A stretch of DNA of 64,000 nucleotides, taken from positions 28,596 through 92,595 of the IMG/VR virus record IMGVR_UViG_3300049139_000233. One strand, 5' to 3'. This document shows positions 6,359-63,731 of this stretch, one piece after another. The first letter of the stretch is position 1. Every line of letters begins with the position of its first letter. The translations under genes were made by a program, and so were the position numbers. The notes beneath the pieces are model-generated. The model saw only the letters and a list, made by a program, of their open reading frames with translations. It made no database searches and was not told the origin of the DNA. This DNA is from a virus.

Positions 6359-6450
6359 GAAGTAACCCTTCGAGTGGGGCCGTTCGGGCACGGCCCGTTC
6401 CTGTGTTCCGTGTTCCGTGCGCGTCGCCGGGCGGGTCGACAATCCCGGCG

Positions 6451-6494: not shown

Positions 6495-6506
6495 TGAACA
6501 CGCCAA

Positions 6507-6534
6507 AGCCCCGGTGCCTTTCCGGCCCGGGGCT
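6507..6534 (-). terminator. hairpin terminator
   Basis: AGCCCCGG-N12-CCGGGGCT, downstream of the XRE gene stop. Confidence 0.55.
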
Positions 6535-6554
6535 CAGGGTTGGGTGGCAGCCGG

Positions 6555-7835
6555 TCACAGCCGCGCGGCCACCTGCTCGCGCAGCTCGGCGGCGGCCGGC
6601 GAGTCGGGGACCGACGGCAGCCGTGCAGCCACCGTGGCCAGGCCGTCGGAGATCTTCGTGGACTGAACGCCGGCGGAGCACTCCAGGAAGTCGGACCACG
6701 TCGCCAGCGCCTCGCCCGTGTTCCCCCGCTTGAGCTGCACGTGACCGAGGTCCGCCAGCACGATGGCGCGGGTACGCCGGCGGTCCAGACCGTGGATGTC
6801 CAGGGAGAGGTGCAGGTGCTCCTCGGCGGCGGCCAGGTCGCCGAGCCGGGCGAGGATCATCCCCGATTCGTGAGCCCACCGGCCGTGGCTGTAGTGGCTC
6901 GCCCACGACTGCCCCGGCGCGGCCGGTGCGTGCTCCATGGCGCCCTGCGCGGCGGACAGCATCCGAGCCGCCGTGGCACGGTCGCCGTCGGCGGCCTTCG
7001 CGCGGGCGAGCGTGTTGCGGTAGTAGGCCAGGGCCTTCGGGTTGTCCAGTCGCCGCCCGCGCTCCTCGCACGCCTCCGCCAGACGCACGGCGGTGGGGAC
7101 GTGGCCGAGGTCGATGGCCTGGTCCGCGAGACCGCGCAGCGCCGTCGCTGCCAGCTCGTTCTCCCCGGCCTCGGTGGCCAACCGCACGCTGTGCACGAGG
7201 TAGCGCTGGCTCAGCCCCACACTGCCCTCGTCCCGGGCCATCCACCCGATGAGGTGCACCAGTTCCGCCGTCGCCGCGAACAACTCGCGGCCGACCTTCT
7301 CGGTGTACTTCCCGTCCAGCCAGCGGCGAACGTCCTCGGTCAGGTAGCGCACGGCGAGGTGCCGCGCGTGCCCGCCGCCCAGCTCCGACGCCGCGTCGCC
7401 CAGGGTGCCGGTCATCGTGCGCACGGCGGAGACCTCGCCCATGCCGACGGCCACCGGCCCCGGGCGCGCCACGCGCCGGGTGACCGCGTCGGTGTCCGGC
7501 AGGTCGAGCGCTGCGAGCCCGGCGGCGGCCGACGCGGTCAGGAAAGTGCGGCGGTCCACGTCGTCTCCCCCAAGGGTCATCACAGAGGTCACGGTGTCGT
7601 CCGGGGCCGGGCTGTCTCCGCCCCGTGAGAGGTCCAGGCCCAGGGCCTGCTCGATGTACGGCAGCCATTCCACCGGCACGCGCCGGCCGGTCTCCCACCG
7701 GTACACCTGCTGACGGTCGCAGAACCCCCGGCTGCCCCAACGCAGTTCCGATAACTGGTCCGCGAGGGCGGCCTGGCTGCACCGTGGCCGCCGGGCCTCT
7801 CGGGCGGCGCGGATGCGTTCGCCGATTGTCGACAT
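6555..7835 (-). CDS. XRE-family HTH transcriptional regulator with TPR-like C-terminal domain (candidate phage repressor)
   Basis: N-terminal HTH: IGERIRAAREARRPRCSQAALADQLSEL...VYRWETGRRVP. A long helical repeat region follows (LGDLAAAEEHLHLSLDI..., LKRGNTGEALATW). ATG at 7835 follows AGACCGAGGAAACGAC. Confidence 0.8.
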   Translation of the reverse strand: MSTIGERIRAAREARRPRCSQAALADQLSELRWGSRGFCDRQQVYRWETGRRVPVEWLPYIEQALGLDLSRGGDSPAPDDTVTSVMTLGGDDVDRRTFLTASAAAGLAALDLPDTDAVTRRVARPGPVAVGMGEVSAVRTMTGTLGDAASELGGGHARHLAVRYLTEDVRRWLDGKYTEKVGRELFAATAELVHLIGWMARDEGSVGLSQRYLVHSVRLATEAGENELAATALRGLADQAIDLGHVPTAVRLAEACEERGRRLDNPKALAYYRNTLARAKAADGDRATAARMLSAAQGAMEHAPAAPGQSWASHYSHGRWAHESGMILARLGDLAAAEEHLHLSLDIHGLDRRRTRAIVLADLGHVQLKRGNTGEALATWSDFLECSAGVQSTKISDGLATVAARLPSVPDSPAAAELREQVAARL

Positions 7836-18059: not shown

Positions 18060-18100
18060 CATTTAGTTAAATCCCCGATCGGTGGTTTTGTTAAACCATC
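18060..18100 (-). promoter_or_regulatory. two degenerate P-box cores
   Basis: Minus strand reads GATGGTTTAACAAAACC-N10-GGGGATTTAACTAAATG, upstream of the triple-LuxR gene. Confidence 0.35.
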
Positions 18101-19181
18101 ACAGGCCCAGCCACAGCGGATGGTCCAGGGACCAGCGCACCGTGCGCTCCAGCGACTCCTCCAGCGGAACCGGAGGCTTCCAGCCGAGGGCGGCGAGCCG
18201 CGAGCCGTCCAGGGCGTAGCGCAGGTCGTGGCCGGGCCGCGAGGAGTGGAAGGACACCGGCTCGATGAGGTCGTCCACGATGGCCGGGTCCAGGCCCATC
18301 ACGCGGCCGACCAGGTGCACCAGCTCCACGTTGTCGACTTCGCGCTCACCGACGATGTGGTACCGCTCGGGCCGGGTGAACGCCCCGTCGCTGTACCGCG
18401 CCGGGCCGGCGGCAATGCGGTACGTCTCCCCGCTCAGCGTCTGCACGTCGGGCGACCCCTCGGTGTACCGGCGCGTCAGGTGCAGCCAGGCGTCGGCGAG
18501 GTTGCGCGCGTGCAGGTAGAACCGGGAGCCCGGGGTGCCGTCGGGAGCGGTGTGCACCGTGACCGGCCGGCGATCGCGCAGCCGGCTGACGATCATGGGG
18601 AGGAACTTCTCCCGGTCCTGCATCTCCCCGATGATGTTCATGGTGTTGGTGATGACGACCGGCACGTCGTAGGTCCGCCAGTAGCTGACCGCGATGGCCT
18701 CTTGGGCGGCCTTGGACGCGCTGTACGGGTTGGACGGCACGACCGGCTCCCACTCCGTGTGCCGGTGGTCGCCGTAGGCCGGGCCGTACACCTCGTCGGT
18801 GGACATCTGGAGGAACACCCTCGGCCGGACGGACCGCGCGACCTCCAGGATGTTGAGCATCAGGGCGACGTTGTTCTGAACGAACGCTGCCGGGTCGGAT
18901 ATCGACCGGTCGACGTGCGACTCGGAGGCGACGTTCATGATGACGTCGCAGCCCTCGAACTGGTGCAGGGTCAGCGGGTCGGCCGGCGCCCGCATGTCCC
19001 AGTGGACGACGTGCACGCGTTCGGACCAGTCGGTGTCGCACACCGCCGACGCGATGCGCGCGGGGAGCCCCTTGTGCCGGAAGGACACCGGGCAGGTGAT
19101 CTCCCAGTCCGTGTTCGCCAGCAGGTGGCGCAGGACGTGGCTACCGACGAAACCCGACGCGCCCGTGAGCAGGACGTGCAT
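18099..19181 (-). CDS. NDP-sugar 4,6-dehydratase (RmlB-like extended SDR)
   Basis: Motifs: MHVLLTGASGFVGSH (GxxGxxG), MSTDEVYG, PYSASKAAQE (YxxxK). Internal ATG at 19181 follows GACCACGGAACGAGGAG. Confidence 0.8.
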   Translation of the reverse strand: MHVLLTGASGFVGSHVLRHLLANTDWEITCPVSFRHKGLPARIASAVCDTDWSERVHVVHWDMRAPADPLTLHQFEGCDVIMNVASESHVDRSISDPAAFVQNNVALMLNILEVARSVRPRVFLQMSTDEVYGPAYGDHRHTEWEPVVPSNPYSASKAAQEAIAVSYWRTYDVPVVITNTMNIIGEMQDREKFLPMIVSRLRDRRPVTVHTAPDGTPGSRFYLHARNLADAWLHLTRRYTEGSPDVQTLSGETYRIAAGPARYSDGAFTRPERYHIVGEREVDNVELVHLVGRVMGLDPAIVDDLIEPVSFHSSRPGHDLRYALDGSRLAALGWKPPVPLEESLERTVRWSLDHPLWLGL

Positions 19182-19252
19182 GGCCACTCCTCGTTCCGTG
19201 GTCTGTGAGCGTGGCCGGATGGTAGCCAGGGACTCCGAAATCACCGAACGTG

Positions 19253-20533: not shown

Positions 20534-21136
20534 TCACCAGCCCCGCCGGGCGCCGCGCGACGGAGTGCCGATGAGATCGAACAGGTCCGCGCGCTGCTGC
20601 GGGTCGTCCAGGAACACCCCGGTGTACGAAGCGGTGACCATCACCGCCCCCGGCTTCCGCGCACCCCGGTGGGCCAGGCACCCGTGCTCCGAGCGGATCA
20701 CGCAGGCGGAGCCGAGGGTGTCCAGATGCTTGTCGAGTGCGTCGGTGACCTGCTTGGTGAGCTGTTCCTGCGTCTGGAGGCGCCGGGCGTAGACGTCCAG
20801 GACCCGGGGCAGCTTGGACAGACCTGCCACCCGCGCGCCCGGGGTGGGCAGGTAGGCGATGTCCGCCGTGCCCGTGAACGGCAGCAGGTGGTGCTCACAG
20901 ACGGACGTGAACTCCACCCCGGTCACCGCGATGGGCTGCCCGCCGCGCTCCACGTCGAAAGTGCGCTCCAGCAGCTCGCCGGCGTCCAGGGCGTAGCCGG
21001 CCGTGAACTCCTCCAGTGCCCGGAGCATACGGGCCGGCGTTCCGGCCAGGGCCTCGGAGTCGGGGTCCAGGCCCCGCCCGGCGAACCAGGTCCGCAGGCC
21101 GCTGACGAACAGGTTGTGCGCGGTCGTCTCGCTCAT
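20534..21136 (-). CDS. folE: GTP cyclohydrolase I
   Basis: Motifs: FTSVCEHHLLPF, IAYLP, LSKLPRV, QERLT-like QEQLT, CLAHRG. Confidence 0.9.
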   Translation of the reverse strand: MSETTAHNLFVSGLRTWFAGRGLDPDSEALAGTPARMLRALEEFTAGYALDAGELLERTFDVERGGQPIAVTGVEFTSVCEHHLLPFTGTADIAYLPTPGARVAGLSKLPRVLDVYARRLQTQEQLTKQVTDALDKHLDTLGSACVIRSEHGCLAHRGARKPGAVMVTASYTGVFLDDPQQRADLFDLIGTPSRGARRGW

Positions 21137-21849
21137 CGGCCTCTCTCATCTCCCCACGCGTGGACGTGCAGGCGCGTGGTCACGTTGAATCCGGCTCGGA
21201 TCGCGGGCTCCGCGATCTCGGACAGGTGGCGGGACAAGGTGGCGGAGTCCGTGCCCTCGGGCATGACCCACACCCGGCGGGCGGGGATCCCGTGTGCGGC
21301 CGTCAGCTCCACCGTTCCGGCGACGTCGCCGGCGTCGCGGCACACGACCTTGAACGCCGCCTTCCCCGTGGCGGCCAGGGCCTTGAGCGCCGTGCCGTTG
21401 ACGCGCCGGTCCCCGGCGACCCCGGAGTGCGCCAGCTTGGGCGAGACGACGAACCGGGTCAGCAGCCGAGCCGTCTCCTCGCTCGGTTCCACCGTGCCGT
21501 TCGTCTCCGCCTCCACCCGGATCCCGGCGCCGGTCAGGCCGCGCAGAACAGCTCCCCAGCCCGGGTAGCCCTGCTGGAGCAGGGGTTCGCCCCCGGAGAC
21601 GATGACGAACCGGACTCCGGTGGCCAGCAGCCGGTCCACGATCATGTCCGCGTCCATGCGCCGCAGCTCAGCGCGCAGGTCGTGCCGCGAGGCGTCCCAC
21701 GTCCACGGGGTGTCACACCACGAGCAAGTGAGGTTGCAGCCGCCGAGCCGCAGGAACGCACACCGCTGGCCCAGCGTCGGGCCCTCGCCGGACACCGTCG
21801 GCCCGAAGATCTCCGAGACGACCAGGGACGGCCGCGCCGGCGCGGTCAC
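21133..21849 (-). CDS. queE: 7-carboxy-7-deazaguanine synthase (radical SAM)
   Basis: Motifs: IFGPTVSGEGPTLGQRCAFLRLGGCNLTCSWCDTPWTW. Coupled to the neighbouring genes by 4-nt overlaps. Confidence 0.9.
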   Translation of the reverse strand: MTAPARPSLVVSEIFGPTVSGEGPTLGQRCAFLRLGGCNLTCSWCDTPWTWDASRHDLRAELRRMDADMIVDRLLATGVRFVIVSGGEPLLQQGYPGWGAVLRGLTGAGIRVEAETNGTVEPSEETARLLTRFVVSPKLAHSGVAGDRRVNGTALKALAATGKAAFKVVCRDAGDVAGTVELTAAHGIPARRVWVMPEGTDSATLSRHLSEIAEPAIRAGFNVTTRLHVHAWGDERGR

Positions 21850-22283
21850 GGTGACTCACCCGTCCAAGACGCCTCGTTGACGGCCGTCTCCCGCACGTCT
21901 ACGTTCACCACGCGGGCGCCGTTGGCGTGGTCCACTGTGGCGAGGATCCCCGAGGCGACGGACGCCAGCAGCTCTGCTGTCGCCTCCACCGTCGGCCACG
22001 AGTCCTCGAACTCGAACACCTTGGAGCCCATCGAGCACAGCACGGGCAGCAGCGGGTCGGCAGTACCGAGCATCGCGCCGTGGTCCAGGTGGTGATCGAT
22101 CCACTCGCGAACGGCGCGCTTGAACGCGCCGAACTCCACGACGATGCCGTCCGCGTTCAGGGCCGGGGCCGCCACGGTGATCTCCACCCACCAGGAGTGG
22201 CCGTGCAGGTTGAAGCACTTGCCGCCCAGCTCGGGCAGCCGGTGGGCGGTCTCGAAGTTGTGCCGGACCGTGACGCTGTTCAT
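21846..22283 (-). CDS. queD: 6-carboxy-5,6,7,8-tetrahydropterin synthase
   Basis: Internal ATG at 22283 (ATGA overlap with queC). Sequence: NFETAHRLPELGGKCFNLHGHSWWVEI. Confidence 0.9.
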   Translation of the reverse strand: MNSVTVRHNFETAHRLPELGGKCFNLHGHSWWVEITVAAPALNADGIVVEFGAFKRAVREWIDHHLDHGAMLGTADPLLPVLCSMGSKVFEFEDSWPTVEATAELLASVASGILATVDHANGARVVNVDVRETAVNEASWTGESP

Positions 22284-22954
22284 GCCGCGTACTCCGTGGG
22301 GTCGGTGAGCCCGGCGTCGGCAAACGCCTCCTTGCGCTCGGTGCACGTCCCGCAGGTGCCGCAGTGCACGGCGCCACCCTTGTAGCAGGACCAGGACATG
22401 CCCACCGGGGCGCCGATGCGCTCCGCGTAGGCGGCTATCTCCGTCTTCGTCATGCCGACGAACGGAGTGACGATCTGTGGGACGTGCAGACCCTTGAGCG
22501 CGACAGCCGCCAGCTCCCGCAGCGCGTCCACGAACTCGGGGCGGCAGTCCGGGTACACGGCGCGGTCGCCGGCGTGAATACCGAGGCCGATCAGCTCCGC
22601 GCCCCGGGCCGAGGCGACCCCCAGCGCGATGGACGCCATGATGGCGTTGCGGTTGGGCACTACGGTGGACTTCATCGACTCGTCCTCGTAGTGACCGTCC
22701 GGGACGTCCACGGTCTCGTCGGTGAGGGAAGAGCCGGGCAGCAGCGGGGCGAGGGAGGACAGGTCCACCGTGCAATGCTCCGCGCCGAGGTAGCCGGCGA
22801 TCCCGGCCGCCGCCTCCAGCTCCCGGGCTCGGTGCCGCTGGCCGTAGTTGAAGGACAGCAGCAGCAGGTCGTACTCCTTGCGCACGTAGTGTGCCGCCAG
22901 AGTCGTTGAGTCCATGCCCCCGGAGAACGAGAGCACGGCGAGCGGTTTGGTCAC
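22280..22954 (-). CDS. queC: 7-cyano-7-deazaguanine (preQ0) synthase
   Basis: PP-loop LSFSGGMDSTTL and C-terminal Zn cluster CYKGGAVHCGTCGTCTERKEAF. Confidence 0.9.
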   Translation of the reverse strand: MTKPLAVLSFSGGMDSTTLAAHYVRKEYDLLLLSFNYGQRHRARELEAAAGIAGYLGAEHCTVDLSSLAPLLPGSSLTDETVDVPDGHYEDESMKSTVVPNRNAIMASIALGVASARGAELIGLGIHAGDRAVYPDCRPEFVDALRELAAVALKGLHVPQIVTPFVGMTKTEIAAYAERIGAPVGMSWSCYKGGAVHCGTCGTCTERKEAFADAGLTDPTEYAA

Positions 22955-43569: not shown

Positions 43570-43836
43570 ATGACCGTGACCGCGCCGCAGCGTCCCCAGC
43601 GAGGGCGCCCGAGGCCCGCCGAGACCATCGAACGCGACCGGAAGATCCTGTCCCTGCTCCGGGACAACCCCGATGGCCTGGCCCGCAACGACATCGCCGA
43701 GATGATGGGCCTGAACAAGTCCGTCACCTACCTGTCACTGGACCGCCTGCGCCGGGACGGCCTGGCGAAGAAGGTCAGCCCCGAGGGGTCGCAGGCCGAC
43801 AAGGACACCCTGTGGGTGGCCACCCGGGAGGGCTGA
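43570..43836 (+). CDS. winged-helix (MarR/ArsR-like) DNA-binding protein
   Basis: ERDRKILSLLRDNPDGLARNDIAEMMGLNKSVTYLSLDRLRRDGLAKKV. Confidence 0.65.
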   Translation: MTVTAPQRPQRGRPRPAETIERDRKILSLLRDNPDGLARNDIAEMMGLNKSVTYLSLDRLRRDGLAKKVSPEGSQADKDTLWVATREG

Positions 43837-44183
43837 TGCCATCGGAGCGCACGGCCTGTGACCAGGAGCCCGCACACGGCGCAGACGCCGAAGGTGCGGG
43901 CTCCGTGGTTGTCGGGGCCGACCCTTCCGCCCCGGGCGGCCCCGCCGTTCACCCGGTGGACGCCGAGGCGGCAATGCTTCAGGCCCGGGAAGTCGGCGAG
44001 GCGTTCCAGATCTTCCGCCAGAACCTGGAGCGGGTGATCCCGGCCCTCCACGAGTCGCTGCGCGACTTCGCCGAGACGGTGGGGCGGGTGGCCGGTGAGC
44101 CGCTGTCCGAGTACGACACCGGGGACGCCATGCACTGGAGCCCGCCGGCCGACGGAGAGGAGACCCACCCATGCCCCGCCTGA
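43836..44183 (+). CDS. hypothetical protein (115 aa)
   Basis: ATG overlaps the upstream stop (TGATG). Confidence 0.5.
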   Translation: MPSERTACDQEPAHGADAEGAGSVVVGADPSAPGGPAVHPVDAEAAMLQAREVGEAFQIFRQNLERVIPALHESLRDFAETVGRVAGEPLSEYDTGDAMHWSPPADGEETHPCPA

Positions 44184-44815
44184 CCGTAGCCGTCGTCATA
44201 CCGACCATCCCCGGCCGCGAGGAGTCGCTGGAGCGCGCACTGGAGTCCGTCCGTGCGCAGCGGCGCCGGCCGGACCAGGTCGTCGTGGAGCGCGACTCCC
44301 TGCGCACCGGGGCCGACCAGGCCCGCAACCGCGCGCTGGAGCGGGTCACCACGGACGTCGTGGCCTGGCTCGATGACGACGACGAGCTGAAGCCGAACCA
44401 CCTCATGGCCTGCATGCGCGTGATGGAACAGTCCCGTGAGGCGCCGGATCTCGTCTACCCGGCCCCGCAGATGCGCGGCGGCCAGGACAGGACGGCGGTG
44501 TCCGTGCAAGGCCAGTGGGTGTCCCCGTGGGGCGTCCGGTTCGGCCCTGAGCAGGCTGCGCACCTGCGCCGGTTCGGCTCGTTCATCCCCATCACGCACG
44601 TCGTGCGGACGGAGCTGGTCCGGTCCATCGGCGGGTTCCGCCCTGGCCAGGAAGTGACGACAGAGGGTGTCGGTCGCCGCTACCGTGGCGAAGACGAGGA
44701 TTACCTGGTGCGCCTGCTGGACGCAGGCGCCCGGTTCGAGCACCTGGACGCGCGCACGTGGGTCTGGAACCTCCACGGGGGCAGCACGGCCGGCCGGGGG
44801 CTCGCACACATCTGA
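44171..44815 (+). CDS. family 2 (GT-A) glycosyltransferase
   Basis: VAVVIPTIPGREESLERALESV...ARNRALE...VAWLDDDDEL (DxD). Confidence 0.75.
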   Translation: MPRLTVAVVIPTIPGREESLERALESVRAQRRRPDQVVVERDSLRTGADQARNRALERVTTDVVAWLDDDDELKPNHLMACMRVMEQSREAPDLVYPAPQMRGGQDRTAVSVQGQWVSPWGVRFGPEQAAHLRRFGSFIPITHVVRTELVRSIGGFRPGQEVTTEGVGRRYRGEDEDYLVRLLDAGARFEHLDARTWVWNLHGGSTAGRGLAHI

Positions 44816-44834: not shown

Positions 44835-45095
44835 GTGCCGACCACCACAGTCACGACCGGACCACCCCCCAACCTCGCGGACGCGGTACGAGGACGCGTC
44901 CGCGAACTGACATCCCGTGGCGTACGGACGTTCACCGCCTCGGACTTCACCGGCGTCGCCCGCAGCGCCGGCCGGCCGGACACCTGGCTGGCGGACCATC
45001 TGCTCGTGCTGGAGGGCATCGGGGTCCTGCGGCCGGTGCCCGGCCGGGGACCGCGCACCTGGTCCCTCAACGCCGCGTCGGAGTACCTGCGGTGA
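44835..45095 (+). CDS. hypothetical protein (86 aa), winged-helix-like
   Basis: GTG at 44835 follows GGAGGAG-N2. Confidence 0.5.
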   Translation: MPTTTVTTGPPPNLADAVRGRVRELTSRGVRTFTASDFTGVARSAGRPDTWLADHLLVLEGIGVLRPVPGRGPRTWSLNAASEYLR

Positions 45096-45421
45096 CGGGG
45101 CGCATGAGGTACGGCTACGTCTACGGAGGGACAGCCGTCATCCGGGGTGAGGCCCGGATCGTGGACGGGACGGCTTGGTCCCTCGGTCCGTGCGACGAGG
45201 TGCGGCTGCGCGCGGCAGCCGTACGGGACTTGTCCCGGAGCGAGGGTGTCCCGCTCGCCGCGATAGCGATCAACGACTTCTGGTTCAGCGAGATCGTCAC
45301 GGAGGACGGCGCCGTCGGGGACATGGACGCGGCGGCCGGGCCGGACCCGTTCCGCACGCACCCGGCGGCCGGGCCGGACCCGTTCCGTCCCTGTGATGTC
45401 CCGGACGGCGGGGACACCTGA
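45092..45421 (+). CDS. hypothetical protein (109 aa) with AAGPDPFR tandem repeat
   Basis: GTG at 45092 overlaps the upstream stop (GTGA). Confidence 0.5.
   Translation: MTGRMRYGYVYGGTAVIRGEARIVDGTAWSLGPCDEVRLRAAAVRDLSRSEGVPLAAIAINDFWFSEIVTEDGAVGDMDAAAGPDPFRTHPAAGPDPFRPCDVPDGGDT
45331..45387 (+). repeat. 33-bp-period tandem repeat (two copies of GGCGGCCGGGCCGGACCCGTTCCG)
   Basis: Copies at 45331..45354 and 45364..45387; they encode AAGPDPFR twice. Confidence 0.8.
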
Positions 45422-45626
45422 CGGAGCGGGACACCGGGACAACGAGCCCCTGCGGGACAACCCCGTGGGGGCTTCGTCATGTCCCGGGGACACGGCCGTG
45501 TCCCCCGCTGCCGGGACACCGGGACATGTCCCCCTGGGGGACACCGGGACATCCGGCTTGTCCCGGGGACACGGTACGGGGACATGTCCCGGACAAAGGT
45601 TTGCCGGGACAGGGGACACGGGGACA
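45396..45626. repeat. dense array of GGGACA / TGTCCC hexamers (about 19 copies, both orientations) including 12-bp palindromes GGGACATGTCCC
   Basis: Copies read directly, for example at 45428, 45436, 45454, 45480(rev), 45487, 45499(rev), 45513, 45521, 45527(rev), 45538, 45546, 45559(rev), 45566, 45579, 45585(rev), 45606, 45613, 45621. Confidence 0.85.
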
Positions 45627-45658
45627 GATAGCGTGTACGATGATTTAGGAAAATCAGC
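45621..45658 (+). promoter_or_regulatory. P-box variant whose -35 position is a GGGACA repeat
   Basis: GGGACA-N12-GATGATTTAGGAAAATCAGC, with the same 12-bp spacing as the consensus copies. Confidence 0.45.
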
Positions 45659-45698
45659 ACCGACCAAGGAATCAGGACCAAGGAAGAGAGGACAGACG

Positions 45699-46937
45699 AT
45701 GTCCCGCATGTCCCGTCAGACGGCCGCCACCGCCGGGCTGCTTGTCCCGGCAGCCCTGGCCATGGCCATGTCCGCCGACACCTCGTACCGCTTCCTGGAG
45801 ACGGCCCTCCAGATCACACACCCTGCGGAGCGGGCCGTCCTGTGCGGGGTCGCCGAGGCGGCCATCGTGGCGCTCACGGTGTACGCGTGGGCCACCCGCA
45901 CCAAGGGGCCCGCGTACCTGGCCTACGCGGCCGTTCTCGTACAGGCCATCCCCGCCTTCGAGGTGTCCGGCGGGGTCGGGGGCCCGGTCCGCGTCATCCT
46001 CGGCCCCGTCCTGCTGGCCGTGCTCCTGCACCTGCTGCTCGGGCTCGAACTGCGCATGTCCGGCGGGAAGCCGGACAGCCTGGTCAGGGCCGCCCTGCGG
46101 GAGCTGCGGGAGCGCCTGACGGCCTTCCTGGGCATCGGCCGGCGCGGTGCGGACTCCGCCGCCATCGCACGCAGCCGCGCCGCCGACCGCGCCGTAGACC
46201 TCGCGGACCGCGTGGAGGCCGCCCGGGACGGCAGCCGCAGGCACTCCCGGCTCAAGGCGAAGCTCGCCGCGCAGATCGACGCCGCACGGCACGGCCTGAC
46301 CCCGGCCGAGGCCGTGAAGGCCGAGGCCGACATCGTCGCCCGTGTGGTCCGCCGCAAGTCGGTCACGTCGCTCGCCGGCATCCAGGCCCGCCACGACTGG
46401 GCCGTGTCCCTCGTGTCCCCCGCCAAGGCTGTCCCCGGGGACAACGGGACAGAGCCTGTCCCCGCCGCCGCGTCCCCCGCTCCGGGACATGTCCCCGGGG
46501 ACAAGGGACAGGACGGTGTCCCGGGGGACATGTCCCCCGCCGTGTCCCGGGACACGGAGACGGAGCCTGTCCCCGCTCCCGTGTCCCCCGCGCCGGCTGT
46601 CCCCCAGCCTGTCCCCGAGGTCGTGTCCCGCACCCGCGCCTCTGTCCCGGCCCTGTCCCCCGCGCGCCCCACCGTCCACGTCGCGGTGGACAAGACGCCC
46701 GAAGAGATCCCGGCCGAGCGGGACACGGTGTCCCCCGCGCGGGACAGCGAGGTCGATGTCCCCGAGGAGCTGATGGACAACCTGTCCGCCGTCGTCCGCT
46801 ATCTGATGGAGACGGCCCACAGCCGGGACGAGATCCGGCGGATCGTCCCCACCCTGCCGGGACACGAGGACGTCAAGTCGGACAGCCTGAAGAAGGCGAT
46901 CCAGCGGGCCGCGAAGGCACTTGCGGACGCGAGCTGA
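45699..46937 (+). CDS. membrane protein (DUF2637/SpdB-like N-terminus) with Pro/Val/Ser/Asp low-complexity region encoded by TGTCCC/GGGACA repeats
   Basis: Internal ATG at 45699 follows GACCAAGGAATCAGGACCAAGGAAGAGAGG. About 4 TM helices in the first 120 aa. Positioned like the Spd proteins of Streptomyces conjugative elements, upstream of a TraB-like gene. Confidence 0.6.
   Translation: MSRMSRQTAATAGLLVPAALAMAMSADTSYRFLETALQITHPAERAVLCGVAEAAIVALTVYAWATRTKGPAYLAYAAVLVQAIPAFEVSGGVGGPVRVILGPVLLAVLLHLLLGLELRMSGGKPDSLVRAALRELRERLTAFLGIGRRGADSAAIARSRAADRAVDLADRVEAARDGSRRHSRLKAKLAAQIDAARHGLTPAEAVKAEADIVARVVRRKSVTSLAGIQARHDWAVSLVSPAKAVPGDNGTEPVPAAASPAPGHVPGDKGQDGVPGDMSPAVSRDTETEPVPAPVSPAPAVPQPVPEVVSRTRASVPALSPARPTVHVAVDKTPEEIPAERDTVSPARDSEVDVPEELMDNLSAVVRYLMETAHSRDEIRRIVPTLPGHEDVKSDSLKKAIQRAAKALADAS
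46405..46770. repeat. second GGGACA / TGTCCC array (about 26 copies by eye) embedded in the coding sequence of 45699..46937
   Basis: Examples: GTGTCCCTCGTGTCCCCCGCC...CTGTCCCCGGGGACAACGGGACAGAGCCTGTCCCC...GGGACATGTCCCCGGGGACAAGGGACAGG... Confidence 0.85.
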
Positions 46938-46947
46938 CAAGCGCACT

Positions 46948-46966
46948 CTTGATTTAGGTAAAGCCC
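46948..46966 (+). promoter_or_regulatory. P-box variant
   Basis: CTTGATTTAGGTAAAGCCC, overlapping the left arm of the hairpin at 46960..46993. Confidence 0.3.
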
Positions 46967-46993
46967 TGCCGGGGACAACCCTGGTAGGGCTTT
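46960..46993 (+). terminator. hairpin terminator
   Basis: AAAGCCCT...AGGGCTTT, with an inner stem around GGGGACAACCC. Confidence 0.5.
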
Positions 46994-47038
46994 CGCCTTT
47001 CGGACTCAGGAACCAGGAACCAGGAAGAGGTACGCGGC

Positions 47039-47614
47039 ATGAGCCGTATCGGTCAGAACCACCCGGACAACCCCTTCAGCGCGCGGGGCCGCGTCAACGG
47101 ACAGTCGGACGAACAGCTCCGCAGCCGGGGTCTGGACTCCCAGGGGCACCCGGCGCCGGCGGAGGACAAGGTGGGCAAGAGCAGCAGGTCAAACGGGTTT
47201 TCCCGGCCCGGCGGCACGCGCGGCCAGAACATCGCCCAGCTCGCGCAGTCGATCGGCTCCATGGAGCTGGGCAACCAGGACGACCTGCACGCCTTCTGTG
47301 AGGCATACCGGGCGATCCTCAACTACCTCGCCGTGTCCGCCAAGATGGCGGAAGGCCAGCTCAAGGCCTCCGCGAGGGCCAACGCGAGGCAGGCCAAGGA
47401 CGGCTGGATGGGCCCCATGCAGGCCGCCAAACTGGCGAGCACGCTGCGCCAGGTCGGCAAGGACCTCGACCACATCGCCAACTCCTGCGTCGGCGGGGCC
47501 GCGAGCGCCGTCAAGGCGTGGCGGCGGTTCGAAGCACTGCTGGACGAGCTGGAGAACGACAACGGGCGGCCGAACCGCCCCGGGGGCCGCCGTGGCGGCT
47601 TCTCCGTGGTGTAA
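47039..47614 (+). CDS. hypothetical protein (191 aa)
   Basis: ATG follows AGGAACCAGGAACCAGGAAGAGG. Confidence 0.6.
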   Translation: MSRIGQNHPDNPFSARGRVNGQSDEQLRSRGLDSQGHPAPAEDKVGKSSRSNGFSRPGGTRGQNIAQLAQSIGSMELGNQDDLHAFCEAYRAILNYLAVSAKMAEGQLKASARANARQAKDGWMGPMQAAKLASTLRQVGKDLDHIANSCVGGAASAVKAWRRFEALLDELENDNGRPNRPGGRRGGFSVV

Positions 47615-47628
47615 GGGCGGTGGACGGC

Positions 47629-49605
47629 ATGAGCAAGCACACCGCGCCCCGCGTGAGGGGATACGCCCTGTTCAACGTGCCTGAGCGGGTCGTCTCGTAC
47701 GTCCTGCCGTGGGCCGTCACCGTGGCCGTCTGGCCGCTCGCCCTGGTGCTGCACCTCGTCATCGGCGACAGCCCGCTGTGGATGGCGTTCCTCGCCGTCG
47801 GGTTCACGTACCTCGCGTACGTCACATGGACGACCTGGGCGGTGCGCCGCCAGGAGACCCGGGTCATGGTCTCCGTGTTCGTCACGGCTGTCCTGACCTG
47901 GGCAGTCTTCGCCGTCGCGGTCCGGCCGTGGCAGGCGGACATCGTCAAGGCGTGGGCACTCGGCGGCCTCGTGCTGAGCGTCGCCTGGTGCGTGCGCCAC
48001 GCCGCCCTGTCCGGCGTCCGGGACACCGACAAGTCGCAGGTGGAGGGCGGTAACGACGGCCTGCTGGCCAAGGTCCGGGCGTTCAGGGACGCCCGGGTCG
48101 GCAAGACCACCGAGTCCGCCGACGAGCTGCGCGCCCGGGTCCACCTGGACGCCCCGACCACGGCGAAGGAGGCGCAGGACGCCCGGGACCAGATCGCGGC
48201 CGTCGCCGGCGTCGGCGCCGACCAGGTCAAGGTGCTCAAAGTCCCTGGTCACGAAGGTCAGGTCGACGTGGTGTTCAACCGCGCCGCCGACGTCTCCGAA
48301 CCGGTCATCTGGAAGGGCCCGATGCACCTCGGCAAGTCCATCGCGGACGCGCCGATCTGGCTCGGCCGGCGCACCGACGGATCCGACATCAACTGGTGGA
48401 TCGTCGGCGACCCGAACCCGAAAAACCCCAGGCCACTGGCCCACACCAAGTGCACCGGCGTCACCGGCGCGGGCAAGACGGAGACGATCTGCTCGGCGAT
48501 CCTCGCCATGCGGGAGCGCATCGACGTCGTCCCCGTCGTCGGCGACCCGGCCAAGTTCCAGCAGTCGTTCGGCGACATTGAGGACGTGCTGGGCCTGGCC
48601 GCCAAGACGCAGGAGGAAGTCGAGCGGCTGGTCGAGAACCTGAAGCCGCTGGTGGAGTACCGCAGCGGCCTGTTCGGCTCGCTGACCAGGGCAGACGGCG
48701 GCGTCGGCTACAAGCAGTGGGTGCCCGAGCTGTACACCCTGCACGGCATTCCGGCGGTGTTCATCGACATCGAGGAAGCGGCCGACATCGCCGCCCAGGT
48801 GGAGGACGAACTGGACGAGGCCGTGCGCAAGCTGCGGTCCCTGGGCGTCCACCTGTGCCTGTCGATGCAGACGATGCCGCACGACAACATCAGCCGGAAG
48901 ACTCGCGGCCAGTTCGCGCAGTCCCTGGCCCACGGCCAGATGGAGATGCAGGACGCCAAGTACGCCTTGCACGCCGACACGCTGGAGGCCGGGGCCGACC
49001 CGACGAAGTGGCGCAACGACGCCCCCGGCAGCCTGTATGCCGAGGTCGTGGGCACGGACCGCTCGCACTGGCCGATCGACGGCCGGGCGGTCTACCTGCC
49101 CGAAGAGGACAAGCAGCGCAGCAAGGACGCCTCCCGCCAGTACTGGGCGGAGCTGGACGAGGGTACGTACCGGATCCTCGCCCGGGGCATCGCGGACGTG
49201 GCCGCGCCGACGGCCGTGGAGCAGCCTCTGGAGGGCACCGTGGACGACGACTTCACCGAGGTCAGCCTGGACGTGACCAGCGGAGACATCGACGCCGGCG
49301 AGCCGCTGGCTCCGCCGCGCGGCGGGGTGGGCGTCACCCTGTGCGAGCCGGCAGGGGTGCGGATGTCCGAGGACGCCGCGCGGGCGGAGCTGCTGAACAG
49401 GCTGGAGATCCTGCGCCAGTCCGGCCAGCGGCGAGTCGGTGCCGAGGACATGGCCGACCTGCCCGACCTGACCGGCCGTCCGCGCGGCTGGGTGTACGCG
49501 GAGTTCGAGAACCTGGCCGACGAGGGGCTGCTGAAGCGGGTCACTCCGCCCAACATGGCGGCCGTGTACGAGATCGATCTGGGTGATCTCGCGGCCGTCG
49601 GCTGA
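47629..49605 (+). CDS. FtsK/SpoIIIE/TraB-like membrane-anchored DNA translocase
   Basis: Internal ATG at 47629. N-terminal TM helices, Walker A CTGVTGAGKTE, Walker B AVFIDIEEA. C-terminal winged helix: GRPRGWVYAEFENLADEGLLKRV. Confidence 0.85.
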   Translation: MSKHTAPRVRGYALFNVPERVVSYVLPWAVTVAVWPLALVLHLVIGDSPLWMAFLAVGFTYLAYVTWTTWAVRRQETRVMVSVFVTAVLTWAVFAVAVRPWQADIVKAWALGGLVLSVAWCVRHAALSGVRDTDKSQVEGGNDGLLAKVRAFRDARVGKTTESADELRARVHLDAPTTAKEAQDARDQIAAVAGVGADQVKVLKVPGHEGQVDVVFNRAADVSEPVIWKGPMHLGKSIADAPIWLGRRTDGSDINWWIVGDPNPKNPRPLAHTKCTGVTGAGKTETICSAILAMRERIDVVPVVGDPAKFQQSFGDIEDVLGLAAKTQEEVERLVENLKPLVEYRSGLFGSLTRADGGVGYKQWVPELYTLHGIPAVFIDIEEAADIAAQVEDELDEAVRKLRSLGVHLCLSMQTMPHDNISRKTRGQFAQSLAHGQMEMQDAKYALHADTLEAGADPTKWRNDAPGSLYAEVVGTDRSHWPIDGRAVYLPEEDKQRSKDASRQYWAELDEGTYRILARGIADVAAPTAVEQPLEGTVDDDFTEVSLDVTSGDIDAGEPLAPPRGGVGVTLCEPAGVRMSEDAARAELLNRLEILRQSGQRRVGAEDMADLPDLTGRPRGWVYAEFENLADEGLLKRVTPPNMAAVYEIDLGDLAAVG

Positions 49606-49621
49606 GCCGGTTGACGTTCTC

Positions 49622-49659
49622 TCAGGGCGGGCACCCCTATGTCAGGGGGCCCGCCCTGA
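49622..49659 (+). terminator. hairpin terminator
   Basis: TCAGGGCGGGC / GCCCGCCCTGA, downstream of the translocase gene. Confidence 0.55.
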
Positions 49660-49762
49660 CGCATTGCTGACGGGCCTCTGTGACGCCTCTGACACGTCAG
49701 CGGACACGCCCCGACTGTCCGGTGACCCGGGTGCTTACGCGGGCCTGACAGGGGCACTGACG
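49640..49762. repeat. CTGAC(A/G) repeat cluster with 12-bp palindrome CTGACACGTCAG (49689..49700)
   Basis: Copies at 49640(rev), 49656, 49667, 49680 (GTGACG), 49689, 49695(rev), 49745 and 49757, plus 49842. Confidence 0.7.
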
Positions 49763-49848
49763 AGGCCCGCAGCGGCGCGGCCTTGAGTTCTCTCCCGTTC
49801 GGCCCGGCCGGCGCGGACAACCGCTCATGACACGAGGAAGACTGACAG

Positions 49849-50241
49849 ATGACCACGGAACAGAACTGCACCAACTGCGGCGTCCCCGCAGCCTTCGCGA
49901 AGACCCTGCCGCTGTGCGCGCGGTGCGGCCTGGCGGTCGCCGAGGAGGCGCTGGGCTTCGTCTTCGGCGGACTGCGCGGCGAAGCCGGGGTGATCGAACT
50001 GCCCGCCGCCCCGGCGCCCCGGATGAGCCCGAAGGTCGCCGACGACGTGGCCCACCAGCGGCTGGCGGCCCTGCGGCGAAAGGGGGTGAAGCGGGTGACC
50101 TACGCGGATCTCAAGGACCTGACCGAGATCACCGGCCGGTCCCGGCCGTGGGTGTACCAGTGGCTGGAAGCCCGGGTGAAGGACGGCGACCTGATCAAGG
50201 ACACGTCGCAGGAGACGGTGGGGTACGTCTTCGCGTACTGA
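49849..50241 (+). CDS. Zn-ribbon + winged-helix DNA-binding protein
   Basis: CTNCG...CARCG, then TGRSRPWVYQWLEARVKDGDLIKD, which resembles the C-terminal wHTH of the translocase. Confidence 0.6.
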   Translation: MTTEQNCTNCGVPAAFAKTLPLCARCGLAVAEEALGFVFGGLRGEAGVIELPAAPAPRMSPKVADDVAHQRLAALRRKGVKRVTYADLKDLTEITGRSRPWVYQWLEARVKDGDLIKDTSQETVGYVFAY

Positions 50242-53113: not shown

Positions 53114-53509
53114 ATGACCGCAGCGAACCCTGTCCCCGTCCGCGTCGTCTCCTTCGGCTACGGCCACGGCGACGCCCCGGAAGCCCACATCACACTGGAT
53201 CTCCAGAAGCACTTCAAGGACCCTCACGTCCGCCCGGAGCTGCGGAAGCTGACCGGCGCCGACCGCCGGGTCCGCCGGACCGTCCTCGGCACGCCGGGCA
53301 TCAAGGCCCTGCTGACCGCCACGGTCCGCGTCGTCCAGGCGTACAACGCCGGCCCGCGCGCTCAGGCCACCGTCGTGGCGGTCGGCTGTGTCGGCGGCCG
53401 GCACCGTTCCGTCGTCGCGGCCCACGTCCTCGCGCGCCGGCTGCGCCGCCGGGGCCACGTGGTCACCGTCGAGCACCGCGACCTGCACCGCCCCGTCATC
53501 GCCCGCTGA
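53114..53509 (+). CDS. stand-alone homolog of the RapZ (YhbJ/YvcJ) C-terminal domain
   Basis: VRVVSFGYGHGDAPEAHITLDLQKHFKDPH and VVAVGCVGGRHRSVVAAHVLARRL...VEHRDL. Compare E. coli RapZ ...AIGCTGGKHRSV...RHRTL (from memory). No P-loop domain is present. Confidence 0.65.
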   Translation: MTAANPVPVRVVSFGYGHGDAPEAHITLDLQKHFKDPHVRPELRKLTGADRRVRRTVLGTPGIKALLTATVRVVQAYNAGPRAQATVVAVGCVGGRHRSVVAAHVLARRLRRRGHVVTVEHRDLHRPVIAR

Positions 53510-54948: not shown

Positions 54949-54988
54949 TCATGCGGTGATTCGGCGGATCGCCGCTACCTTCCCGCGC

Positions 54989-55711
54989 ATGACGCAGACC
55001 ACCCCGCCCCTGGCGGTCCTCGTCCCCACACGCGGCCGGCCGCACAACGCCGTCCGGCTCCAGCAGGCGTTCGCCGACACCGAGTCGCTGAACGCGGAGC
55101 TGGTCTTCGTGGCCGACGCCGACGACCCGGAACTGCCCGCCTACTGGACAGCCGCCGGGGACCGGCTGATCCGGCATCTCACGGTCCACGACGGCGAGAC
55201 CGGCACCGGCATGGCCGCCGCGCTGAACCACGCGGCCGGCCGGTTCGCCGGCGAGTACGCCGCGCTGGGGTTCATGGGCGACGATCACCTGCCGCGCACG
55301 CCCCGGTGGGACGCGCACGTCCTCGGAGCACTGAACACCGCCGAGCCGGCCGTCGTCTACGGCAACGACCTGTTCCAGGGGGCGGCGCTGCCGACGGCAG
55401 TGTTCATGCCGTCCCGGCTCGTGCAGGCCCTCGGCTTCATGGCGCCCCCGGTACTGCGGCACCTGTACGCGGATGACTTCTGGCTGGAGCTGGGGTGGCA
55501 TCTCGGGACGCTGCGGTATCTGCCGGACGTCGTCATCGAGCACCTGCACCCGGCAGCGGGCAAGACCGCCATGGACGACCGGTACGCGGCCGTCAACGCT
55601 CCCGGGGCCGATGCGGCGGACCGGCGCGCCTGGCAGACGTTCCGGGACGGCGGCGGCTTCACCGCCGCGCTGAGCCGCGTGCTGGACGCCTACGGGGAGG
55701 CGGCGGCATGA
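54989..55711 (+). CDS. putative GT-A fold glycosyltransferase
   Basis: LAVLVPTRGRPHNAVRL...FVADADDPEL...FMGDDHLP. ATG 54989 has no SD or P-box; a TACCTT lies 7 nt upstream, so the mRNA may be leaderless. Confidence 0.5.
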   Translation: MTQTTPPLAVLVPTRGRPHNAVRLQQAFADTESLNAELVFVADADDPELPAYWTAAGDRLIRHLTVHDGETGTGMAAALNHAAGRFAGEYAALGFMGDDHLPRTPRWDAHVLGALNTAEPAVVYGNDLFQGAALPTAVFMPSRLVQALGFMAPPVLRHLYADDFWLELGWHLGTLRYLPDVVIEHLHPAAGKTAMDDRYAAVNAPGADAADRRAWQTFRDGGGFTAALSRVLDAYGEAAA

Positions 55712-56646
55712 CCCGGCCCCGGGCTCTGGTGACCGGCGACCGGGGGTTCCTCGGCCGGCACTTCACGGCGGAGCTGAAGCGGCGGGGCTACGACGTCGTG
55801 GGCTGCGACGTGAAGGTGACCCGCAGTCAGGACTGCCGCCGGCTGTTCGCCGAGGACGTCCGGCTGCGGACGATGCCGCACTGGGACCTCGTCGTGCACT
55901 GCGCGGCGGTGGTCGGCGGCCGGGAGACCATCGACGGCGACCCGCTCGCCACGGCGGAGTCGCTGAGCATCGACGCGGAGATGTTCCGGTGGGCGGCCGT
56001 CGCGCGGCCCGGCCGCGTGCTGTACTTCTCCAGCTCGGCCGCGTACCCGGTCAACCTTCAGCACGGCACCCCGCCGTACCGGCTGCATGAGGACGACGTC
56101 TGGGACACCGCCCGGGATGACGACGGTCCGGTACCCGGCACGTTCTGGGACGTGTCCGAGCCGGACCAGGTGTACGGCTGGTCCAAGGTGACCGGCGAAC
56201 TCCTCGCGGCCCGGCTGCGCGAGACCGGCGTCCCGGTGACTGTGGTGCGGCCGTTCTCCGGGTACGGCGAGGACCAGGACGTCACGTACCCGTTCCGCGC
56301 GATCCTGGAGCGCGTCCGGCGCCGCGAGGACCCGCTGGAGGTCTGGGGGTCCGGCGAGCAGGTGCGCGACTGGATCCATGTGGACGACGTCGTGGCCGGG
56401 GCGCTGGCCGTCGCCGACGCGGGCACGACCGAACCGGTGAACCTGTGCACCGGCCTGGCGACGTCGTTCCTGGACCTGGCGCGGATGATGGCGGCGGTTG
56501 CGGAGTACCGGCCCAAGGTGCGGCCCCTGCCCGGCCGTCCGGCCGGCGTGGCGTACCGCGTCGGGGACCCGGCCCGGATGCACCGCTACTACCGGCCCCG
56601 GGTGCGGCTGGAAGACGGGATCCGGCGCGCACTGGAAGCGGTCTGA
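55708..56646 (+). CDS. NAD-dependent NDP-sugar epimerase/reductase (extended SDR)
   Basis: ATG at 55708 overlaps the upstream stop (ATGA). Motifs: ALVTGDRGFLGRH and YGWSKVTGE (YxxxK). Confidence 0.8.
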   Translation: MTRPRALVTGDRGFLGRHFTAELKRRGYDVVGCDVKVTRSQDCRRLFAEDVRLRTMPHWDLVVHCAAVVGGRETIDGDPLATAESLSIDAEMFRWAAVARPGRVLYFSSSAAYPVNLQHGTPPYRLHEDDVWDTARDDDGPVPGTFWDVSEPDQVYGWSKVTGELLAARLRETGVPVTVVRPFSGYGEDQDVTYPFRAILERVRRREDPLEVWGSGEQVRDWIHVDDVVAGALAVADAGTTEPVNLCTGLATSFLDLARMMAAVAEYRPKVRPLPGRPAGVAYRVGDPARMHRYYRPRVRLEDGIRRALEAV

Positions 56647-63395: not shown

Positions 63396-63731
63396 ATGCC
63401 GCATCACCACCAGACGACCGAGAACTTCGACCCGGGTTGTCCACACTGCCGCGAGGAGACGGCGCGGTACTGGGCCGACGTGGAGTCCTGGAAGCTGCGC
63501 ACGGCCGCCGAGATGGCCACCGACGGCACCGGACGCATCTCCCCGTCGGCGTTGATGCGCCGGCTGAGCCAGGACCACGGCGTCCGGGTCACGTTCGAGG
63601 AGTCGCAGACCCTGCTCGGAAAGCTGGAGACCGCTGGCGTGGTCGGCCCTGTCGACCCGCGTAAGCACGCGCACCTGGTTCTGATGGATCGGGTGCAGGC
63701 TCTGTCCGCGCTGGGCCTGCCGGTCGTCTGA
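63396..63731 (+). CDS. FtsK-gamma-like winged-helix DNA-binding protein
   Basis: CPHC near the N-terminus. ISPSALMRRLSQDHGVRVTFEESQTLLGKLETAGVVGPVD resembles the FtsK gamma domain. Confidence 0.5.
   Translation: MPHHHQTTENFDPGCPHCREETARYWADVESWKLRTAAEMATDGTGRISPSALMRRLSQDHGVRVTFEESQTLLGKLETAGVVGPVDPRKHAHLVLMDRVQALSALGLPVV

Follow-up and report, generated by a model that had tools for sequence, protein, structure and literature searches.

A two-part array of GGGACA words around a membrane-protein gene of a Streptomyces phage-plasmid: a candidate protein-binding site beside traA-traB

Arrays A and B and the gene that carries them

We analysed a 64,000-nucleotide stretch of DNA (hereafter the window; positions 28,596 to 92,595 of the IMG/VR virus record IMGVR_UViG_3300049139_000233) in which the short word GGGACA/TGTCCC is concentrated in and just upstream of one gene, at 45699..46937 on the + strand (alternative start 45708). 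This gene encodes a membrane protein of 412 amino acids (aa) belonging to an unnamed family, and is followed by a traA-like gene at 47039..47614 (+) and a traB-like gene at 47626..49605 (+). The first of these matches the NCBIfam plasmid_TraA model weakly (E = 2e-4) and lies in the slot that traA occupies in pWTY27, in pJV1 and in L002, one of some 30 homologue loci (labelled L0xx) fetched for the comparison of words. The product of the second is a DNA translocase of the FtsK/SpoIIIE type with a winged helix at its C-terminus (NCBIfam plasmid_TraB, E = 2e-92, model positions 4-624/639), and its alignment with the TraB of pWTY27 spans 97% of the length. Besides this plasmid-type pair the window, with a G+C content of around 70%, carries phage genes for a portal protein, large terminase, primase-polymerase, helicase and exonuclease. 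Among annotated records, the one close relative found was pS1D4-14.2 of Streptomyces sp. S1D4-14 (complete, 98.8 kb, filed as 'plasmid'), whose record also encodes capsid, tape-measure, integrase and ParA, and IMG/VR lists related contigs of 92-98 kb as viruses. Given this combination of phage genes, traA-traB, the gene content of pS1D4-14.2 and the filing of its relatives, the window is part of a Streptomyces phage-plasmid with a conjugation module; such 'plasmid-phages' have been mentioned previously (PMC4170104).

The word forms two dense blocks. Array A (45397..45626) is intergenic and holds 20 exact copies, 12 on the + and 8 on the - strand, starting at 45397, 45411, 45428, 45436, 45454, 45480, 45487, 45499, 45513, 45521, 45527, 45538, 45546, 45559, 45566, 45579, 45585, 45606, 45613 and 45621; this corresponds to 85 copies per kb, or 20 copies per 235 bp where 0.17 are expected (Poisson p = 9e-35). 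Array B (46405..46762), with 26 copies (9 +, 17 -; p = 6e-43), lies in the coding DNA of a disordered linker of the protein, and not one copy falls in the 651 bp that separate the arrays and code for the N-terminal part. Together they pack about 46 copies into 1.4 kb. Outside positions 45200-47000 the window has 44 copies, or 0.71 per kb, where base composition predicts around 43. SGGGACA occurs 87 times in the window, compared with 37.7 +/- 6.5 in dinucleotide shuffles, and no k-mer array of comparable strength was found elsewhere in the 64 kb. An earlier note on this DNA had described about 19 hexamers upstream of 45699 at a density far above chance, and had proposed the count across the DNA given here; both of its observations hold for array A, but the larger second half of the feature, array B within the gene, had been overlooked.

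In array A the word is preceded by C or G in 20/20 cases and followed by C or T in 15/20, in agreement with the unit form (C/G)GGGACA(Y) given in that note, and the extended word can be written as SSGGGACA. The palindromes GGGACATGTCCC (45521-45532 and 45579-45590) and the outward pairs TGTCCCGGGGACA (45480-45492 and 45559-45571) were likewise found where they had been reported. Hexamers account for 52% of the bases of array A and for about half across both arrays, with irregular spacing and with both orientations in use. Tandem Repeats Finder returned no extended tandem array here, only patches of 2-3 copies, and the single Rfam match in the array region was a meaningless sub-threshold miRNA one. 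The left edge of array A overlaps the last codons of an open reading frame (ORF) at 45092-45421. A further ORF, 45393-46937, runs in frame with the gene across the whole of array A; it was rejected as coding because the homologues all start with MSR... and the stretch holds a promoter box and a ribosome-binding site.

An alignment of the window with L003, L004 and L009 limits positional conservation in array A to the promoter-proximal 50 bp or so. This block (45579..45626, +), which reads GGGGACATGTCCC-GGACAAAGGTTTGCC-GGGACA-GGGGACA-C-GGGGACAG, is nearly invariant in the four elements; at the distal sites, copies turn over and spacers diverge while the word is kept. In array B the word is found in five of the six combinations of frame and orientation, where it encodes VSP, PVP/AVP, GD, RDT, GT, PGH, KGQ and other contexts. 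Codons ending in T represent 9.1% of the array-B linker, versus 3.7% in eight long ORFs and 2.6% in the N-terminal part of the same gene, and 9 of the 11 T-ending codons in array B provide the first T of TGTCCC (GCT, CCT, CAT, GGT, TCT or GAT before GTC-CC). Moreover, the arrays of L021 and L024 continue into DNA without an open frame. The use of nearly all frames, the rare T-ending codons, the persistence in frame-decayed DNA and the turnover of sites under a constant word establish that the word is selected as DNA and not as a peptide. If the repetition were instead a by-product of a low-complexity peptide or of slippage, with no function as DNA, one would expect just such a Pro/Val/Ser-rich disordered linker as array B encodes, as well as the short tandem patches and a case such as L007, where the word and an (AEVP)n peptide repeat overlap in part. 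The four observations above, and the presence of the word in non-coding DNA, leave this explanation already strongly disfavoured, and we hold it to be highly improbable. The stretch encodes predicted disorder and should therefore be under little constraint as protein. In its generic form, the proposal of a multi-site platform for a DNA-binding protein is well supported by the site turnover, the coding frames with their rare codons and the frame-decayed DNA, the platform itself being a predicted one.

The 412-aa protein matches a 409-aa protein of a 92.6-kb contig at 100% identity and has 216 homologues, essentially all annotated as 'hypothetical', on contigs of either ~92-107 kb or ~12-18 kb. 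The family occurs beside traA-traB on Streptomyces phage-plasmids and small conjugative plasmids; three annotated plasmids carry it, and INPHARED (GenBank phages) gave no DNA or protein match to the array region. Residues 1-235 are strongly conserved and comprise two hydrophobic helices (46-64 and 99-117), a further two that are weaker, and a basic helical region; hydrophobic helices and a gene position next to traA-traB are also the marks of SpdB2-type proteins. The linker that follows (approximately aa 236-356) is Pro-rich, hypervariable and predicted to be disordered, with a predicted local distance difference test score (pLDDT) below 50 for residues 228-350. The chain ends in a three-helix domain (aa 357-412) with a pLDDT of 92-95 in the full-length model; the mean for that model is 60, and a Foldseek search with it is meaningless at such confidence. 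The coding region of this domain (46767..46934, +; ...IVPTLPGHEDVKSDSLKKAIQR...), here called type I, specifies the proposed reader of the word, and a separate 67-aa model of it (pLDDT 86) places helices at 17-26, 31-40 and 49-66. Apart from spurious matches (TgpA_N and similar), Pfam, PHROG and NCBIfam gave nothing for the 412-aa protein or for 30 homologues. Within the family the C-terminal domain occurs in several unrelated-looking types, and the tails of distant members have canonical helix-turn-helix (HTH) sequences with sub-threshold Pfam matches to HTH_23, GerE and Sigma70_r4. Judging from the structural model, the type I domain may be an HTH-like reader.

Array words among relatives and their candidate readers

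Across the approximately 30 loci, arrays are located in linker-coding DNA and/or its flanks, never in the conserved N-terminal coding part, and the most divergent members (L010, L016, L017, L019, L041 and L043) showed none. The word itself differs between clades. GGGACA is shared by the window, L003, L004, L009, L032, L035 and L036, with some 45-55 copies each in the same bipartite layout, which answers the earlier suggestion to look for the array in related elements; the other clades have words of their own, namely CGAGAG(G) in L021 and L025, CGAAAGC plus CGAGAGC in L001 and L024, CGCGACA(C) in L002, L005 and L012-15, GGAACC in L006, L007, L028 and L029, TGGACA in L039, CGTTGC(A) in L040 and CGTCTC(A) in L042. 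No clustering of GGGACA was observed in pS1D4-14.2, where the corresponding array, with 31/81 copies of its word in 1.5 kb, is by far the strongest in the 98.8 kb.

The CGARAG-clade relatives are without the upstream array A. In its place they carry a small conserved gene (...SFRDRALLIAWA.EL.RL...GQ.DYE.RER.AWR; L021:5625-5849, L024:5607-5849, L025:5556-5858 and L001:4294-4797) with a P-box-like promoter of its own, the P-box being the recurrent promoter motif of these elements described below. L001 retains a 3-copy GGGACA vestige just upstream of this gene. As an alternative reader the small gene was set aside, since its product has no obvious DNA-binding motif on reading the sequence and no counterpart exists in the GGGACA clade.

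The type of C-terminal domain follows the word. Type I is found with GGGACA at 8 loci, type II with CGCGACA at 6 and type III with GGAACC at 4, and within type IV the subtype IVa (GSIRSTRSA) goes with CGAGAGG and the subtype IVb (DSIRAHRxA) with CGAAAGC; in the MerR-like pair L040/L042 both the helix and the word differ. The tree of the N-terminal domain, a weak neighbour-joining one, is not congruent with the C-terminal type, which suggests that linker and tail may be exchanged as a cassette. In P0032/L028 the word follows the C-terminal type III; the plasmid backbone differs there too, so that this case is not clean as a natural cassette swap. Furthermore, in L001 and L025 the same C-terminal domain types are fused to an Endonuclease_7 enzyme, an arrangement consistent with a putative DNA-targeting role for the tail.

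The Endonuclease_7 (PF02945) ORF itself (L025:7038-7670, L001:~5968-6558) follows or splits the family gene in the CGARAG-clade relatives, and is joined through a further word-array-encoded linker to a family C-terminal domain, type IVb-like in L025 and type I in L001. By its arrangement it looks like a mobile nuclease cassette inserted in the linker.

Three winged-helix proteins encoded near the array had to be weighed as readers. The recognition helices of TraB, of its 130-aa paralogue at 49849-50241 and of the winged HTH protein at 43570-43836 show no consistent difference between word classes in the syntenic large elements, so that two of the reader candidates of the earlier note, 43570..43836 and 49849..50241, do not co-vary with the word; in its third candidate, 63396..63731, there is no Pfam domain. 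The 130-aa protein (49849..50241, +) repeats the winged helix of the TraB C-terminus in its own C-terminal part, which matches positions 559-626 of the NCBIfam TraB model, and has an N-terminal CxxC...CxxC pattern; it is kept in all large relatives, and was rejected as the reader on the basis of a helix that is identical in L003 (GGGACA) and L021 (CGAGAG).

Taking these data together, we propose that arrays A and B constitute one cis-acting multi-copy site, probably read by the C-terminal domain of the very gene 45699-46937 and serving to tether the replicon, a reading based on sequence comparison to which we would give about even odds. Its three components, that the C-terminal domain binds DNA, that the sequence bound is GGGACA and that tethering is the biological role, are all inferred. 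Several facts weigh against it. The covariation is confounded by physical linkage: the domain is encoded a few hundred bp from the array and would be co-inherited with it whatever the reader. Type I has no Pfam match, and all Foldseek matches of the C-terminal domain have E >1, with only weak HTH-like ones among them. The second ORF of L001 combines a type I tail with surrounding CGARAG words, and in L016, which has the IVa helix too, the corresponding word occurs just 4 times. Of the ~92.6 kb the window comprises 64, so the reader may be encoded outside it, and a role in tethering or spreading derives from gene position and architecture only.

Most of these facts speak equally for another DNA-binding protein, encoded by the element or by the host, as the reader, all the more as at least 17 ORFs of the window have no orthologue in pS1D4-14.2 and about 28 kb of the element lie beyond the window. 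We nevertheless regard such a reader as unlikely, though worth keeping in view. The three nearby proteins do not vary with the word; among the scanned ORFs without a pS1D4-14.2 orthologue no recognisable DNA-binding domain was seen except in 6555-7835 (HTH_31+TPR), whose relatives in IMG/VR were found outside, and not on, the four ~95-kb contigs of the GGGACA clade, a weak argument that covers close relatives only; and a host factor cannot account for at least 8 words in one genus.

Other cis-acting sites, promoters and genes of the element

The conjugative transfer locus clt, where TraB recognition sequences are expected, appears to lie elsewhere. Directly after the traB-like gene, at 49606..49848 (+), eight CTGAC(A/G) words (6 on the + strand; 0.21 expected, p = 8e-11) accompany an inverted GGGCGGG...CCCGCCC pair, and a CTGAC(A/G) and CCCGCCC cluster follows traB in 10/10 relatives examined, large and small. 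The clt of pWTY27, which has been mapped by function and footprinted, has the same location after traB and consists of TGACACC and CCCGCCC words (PMC3583192). Considering its position, its presence in the ten relatives and its words, 49606-49848 is likely the clt of the element, and the 130-aa TraB paralogue begins immediately after it. The segment of TraB taken as helix alpha3 was inferred from NCBIfam model positions together with a statement on pSVH1 quoted in PMC3583192. This helix, GRPRGWVYDELE, is identical in L003 (GGGACA) and L025 (CGAGAG), whereas in pJV1, where clt consists of nine CCGCACASS words directly after traB, the recognition helix is a different one (GRDRSWVSKQM). On the aligned sequences, TraB helices co-vary with the word after traB and not with the array word, which speaks against the array being clt.

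The earlier note had considered a clt-like site for the translocase. In favour of that reading, a traB-like gene is found within 2-4 kb of the short-word cluster, the clt loci of Streptomyces consist of arrayed 7-9-bp repeats, and a GACA core is common to array words and to TGACAC. Nonetheless, arrays A and B (45397-46762) are 2.8-4.2 kb upstream of the traB stop (49605) and not at the canonical place of a clt, where the separate cluster is found, and small plasmids carry the two side by side with different words. With the constancy of the TraB helix added, we judge an identity of the array with clt to be very unlikely.

An iteron-type replication origin, also put forward in the note, would explain dense short repeats in both orientations, and the word superficially resembles the pWTY27 iteron (GTGGGAAC/TTCCCAC). 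Rep-type iterons of the small plasmids of the family are, however, separate from the gene-centred array (L002:494-800 and L007:9719-10098), more than half of the copies fall within coding sequence, no rep gene adjoins the array in the window and no AT-rich unwinding element is present at it besides the promoter box. The primase-polymerase and helicase genes, with a point of divergent transcription, are at ~29-37 kb of the window. For these reasons an origin at the array is hardly credible. The two plasmid arrays are of interest as such: that of L002 is dense and of iteron type, GTGGGAAG/TTCCCAC, and matches the RepA-bound iteron words of pWTY27, and that of L007, GGGGGAAC/GTTCCCC x19, contains a long internal duplication.

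A centromere would be expected beside partition genes. No partition NTPase (ParA/ParM/TubZ) is encoded within +/-6 kb of the array in the window or in eight syntenic relatives, and pS1D4-14.2 has a separate ParA pair and a ParB-like gene elsewhere, its ParA gene being some 74 kb from the array with a partner gene of its own. As in centromere-type sites, the repeats overlap a promoter of the candidate binder's own gene: array A stops at its -35 position, an arrangement kept in L003 and L009. The array may have the centromere-like role that the note had listed among its options; its likely reader is none of the proteins named there.

The promoter in question is a variant of the P-box, whose motif, GGGGTTG(Y)NC-N12-13-TG(A/G)TTTA(A/G)TTAA.TCA with a nearly palindromic AT-rich part, has around 19 matches in the window, among others at 5052(-), 6506(-), 8885(-), 8942, 29173(-), 50239, 50807, 51683, 54098, 56640, 57658, 58646, 60042 and 61125. 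To judge by their sequence, P-boxes suggest an element-specific transcription factor or sigma factor; no sigma-70-type promoter was found near the array. The AT-rich box ATGATTTAGGAAAATCAG of the promoter of gene 45699 (45640..45657, +) is kept in L003 and L009, and the last copy of array A (45621-45626) stands 13 nt upstream of ATGATTTAGG, in the slot that TTGTCC takes in some P-boxes. The position given earlier for this copy is therefore exact; the word there is GGGACA, the inverse of TTGTCC, and it stands, in L003 and L009 too, in place of a GGGGTTG-type -35 block. The -35 consensus of the earlier note, GGGGTTGTCCC with TGTCC(C), was over-specified: the consensus is GGGGTTG(Y)NC with variants such as TTGCGC, TTGTGC, TTGTCT and TTGCCC, and about 1/3 of P-boxes contain TGTCC.

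These details decide whether the array could be an enhancer of, or a sponge for, the factor that recognises the P-box -35 element, as had been suggested from the last copy at the -35 of a P-box variant and from those P-boxes that do read GGGGTTGTCCC. The conserved -35 part is GGGGTTG, TGTCC is missing from most P-boxes, the word runs the other way at the 45699 promoter, and relatives with CGAGAG/CGAAAG arrays use the same GGGGTTG... P-boxes, so that the word changes between relatives, small plasmids included, and the promoter code does not. An enhancer or sponge is accordingly the explanation that we credit least. In all likelihood the array is neither clt nor origin and is independent of the P-box, and array, clt and Rep iterons are three separable classes of short-word arrays on these elements.

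Two hairpins flank the gene. The first (45444..45474, +; -29.1 kcal/mol, z = -5.25) is the terminator-like hairpin of the upstream gene and has one GGGACAAC copy in its stem-loop, and the second (46956..46998, +; -33.5 kcal/mol, z = -6.36), with GGGGACAACCC in the stem-loop, follows gene 45699-46937. A counterpart of the former is present in L001, whose array word differs, and the latter is kept there as well. The GGGACA copies at 45454 and 46972 belong to these hairpins and, given that the hairpins are kept irrespective of the word, are not array-specific. Terminator prediction at the array gave no useful call. The GGGACAAC(CC)-containing hairpins of L001 are at 4190-4215 and 6585-6620, and GGGACAACCC words resembling the hairpin words occur in the window at 29151 and 43661.

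Elsewhere in the window, 20534-22954 (- strand) encodes GTP cyclohydrolase I, a radical-SAM (QueE-like) enzyme and QueC, that is, the 7-deazaguanine (preQ0) pathway. These genes are without a counterpart in pS1D4-14.2, and their annotation suggests a possible modification of DNA bases by the phage-plasmid. Genes for sugar-nucleotide metabolism or glycosyl transfer (two NAD-epimerase/GDP-mannose-dehydratase-like, one GT2) and one for a RapZ C-terminal-like protein are distributed over 18099-19244(-), 44171-44815, 54956-56646 and 53114-53509; the predicted sugar genes may act in the glycosylation of DNA or of the cell wall.

Proposed role and comparison with known systems

A model of how such a site could work can be outlined as follows. 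The protein would be anchored in the membrane by its N-terminal helices, probably as an oligomer, with the three-helix reader at the end of a flexible, disordered linker of ~120 aa. Each reader domain would bind one copy of the word as a monomer, which would explain why either orientation and irregular spacing are tolerated. Some 46 sites in 1.4 kb could then provide a high-avidity, replicon-specific hold at the membrane beside the TraA-TraB DNA pump, in a role like that of spread proteins or in anchoring. Array A reaches up to the -35 of the promoter from which the gene itself would be transcribed, and binding at the promoter-proximal block may therefore also feed back on expression of the gene. 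The words diversify between relatives while the clt word stays conserved, which suggests a function in which cross-talk between co-resident elements is harmful, such as positioning, maintenance or spreading, rather than initiation of transfer.

The array is of a known kind, a cis-acting protein-binding array on a mobile replicon, and what is unusual is its anatomy, which points to an undescribed protein-binding site unlike the replication and transfer sites of the element. A broader reading, which we put forward tentatively and think rather less probable than not, is that of a third class of cis site beside origin and clt: a 'self-address' array read by the C-terminal HTH of a spread-type membrane protein, in DUF2637/SpdB2 proteins and in the present family alike. 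How plasmids and phage-plasmids are moved and held in the compartmented mycelium of Streptomyces is poorly understood, and Spd proteins are required for spread but, to our knowledge, have no known specific DNA target. A private, multi-copy address in the protein's own gene would, if the reading is right, supply such a target; each replicon would have its own tether to membrane or septum, with an incompatibility-like diversification of words between relatives, the hypervariability of the linker would be explained by constraint as DNA and not as protein, and the published 'non-specific' DNA binding of SpdB2 would be an incomplete picture. Orthogonal word/domain pairs, of which at least 8 are available as test reagents, could in that event be used to tether or track DNA in actinomycetes. 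The three separable array classes, for their part, help the annotation of these elements.

The closest parallel in layout is SpdA2 of pIJ101, which binds palindromes within its own gene, and removal of site or gene affects segregational stability and not replication (Thoma et al. 2014, PMC4170104). In both cases the sites are within and upstream of the binder's gene and extend over codons, although here the binder is a predicted one. Of the SpdA2 site sps, a highly conserved palindrome of 12 bp (CGTCACGTGACG, a central T being optional), there are 1-3 copies, compared with about 46 copies of a clade-specific 6-8-bp word here; and SpdA proteins are soluble, of 117-163 aa, with an N-terminal DNA-binding region, unlike a membrane-anchored protein of 412 aa with a putative C-terminal reader. 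Identity with SpdA/sps was rejected, the word being GGGACA/TGTCCC and not the published CGTCACGTGACG.

The clt loci of Streptomyces plasmids (pSVH1, pJV1, pWTY27) consist of 7-9-bp repeats read by TraB (PMC4170104, PMC4447253, PMC3583192). They share with the GGGACA array the clustering of short words, a small HTH-type reader domain (putative for the array) on a transfer-module protein anchored in the membrane, and the difference of words between plasmids. A clt, however, coincides with or closely follows the 3' end of traB, comprises 4-12 copies, most of them direct, and varies together with helix alpha3 of TraB, whereas the GGGACA array exceeds it 4-5 times in size, has copies in either orientation and centres on a different gene.

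The membrane protein SpdB2 binds double-stranded DNA non-specifically, contacts the C-terminus of TraB and has homologues on actinophages (PMC4447253). The SpdB2/DUF2637 proteins of pSVH1, pWTY27 and pJV1 resemble the 412-aa protein in length (365-409 aa), in their membrane helices and in their traA-traB neighbourhood, and the order family gene-traA-traB-clt is like the DUF2637-orf-traA-traB-clt of pWTY27, whose DUF2637 protein also shares the overall architecture. As far as sequence comparison goes, homology of the family with DUF2637/SpdB2 could not be demonstrated: in comparison with the DUF2637 protein of pWTY27 BLASTP gave E = 18 and hhalign a probability of 0.7%, and Pfam DUF2637 matched none of 30 members. 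The DUF2637 gene of pWTY27 (L030:1275-1670) nevertheless has CGCGAAC x11 in its 3' half, in at least 2 frames (R-E-Q and A-N-T), and a canonical HTH end, and the SpdB2-type gene of pJV1 (L031:1251-1742) a weaker CGTGAGC/GCGCTCA array in its 3' half, again with a canonical HTH end. We found no description of word arrays in spdB2-type genes in the literature searched. These two genes hint that the principle of a private word may be general to spread-type membrane proteins.

Plasmid centromeres that double as operators offer another parallel: the parC iterons bound by ParR in R1 flank the par promoter, and the parS sites of ParB are within or beside parB. Short sites beside or within the gene of the binder, overlap with its promoter and a specificity that diversifies between related replicons are common to these systems and to the present array, which differs in having no adjoining ParA/ParM-type NTPase, an integral membrane protein as putative reader and irregular spacing. 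BldC, a monomeric HTH protein, reportedly binds repeat arrays, and is similar in that small HTH units bind variable numbers of repeats. Finally, RacA/ram and Noc/NBS are arrays of sites for tethering to the cell pole or the membrane, in which many short sites recruit DNA to the envelope through an anchored DNA-binding protein, as proposed here; the chromosomal sites of RacA and Noc are spread over tens to hundreds of kb, whereas those of the phage-plasmid are all in 1.4 kb of a mobile element, half of them in the gene of their putative reader.

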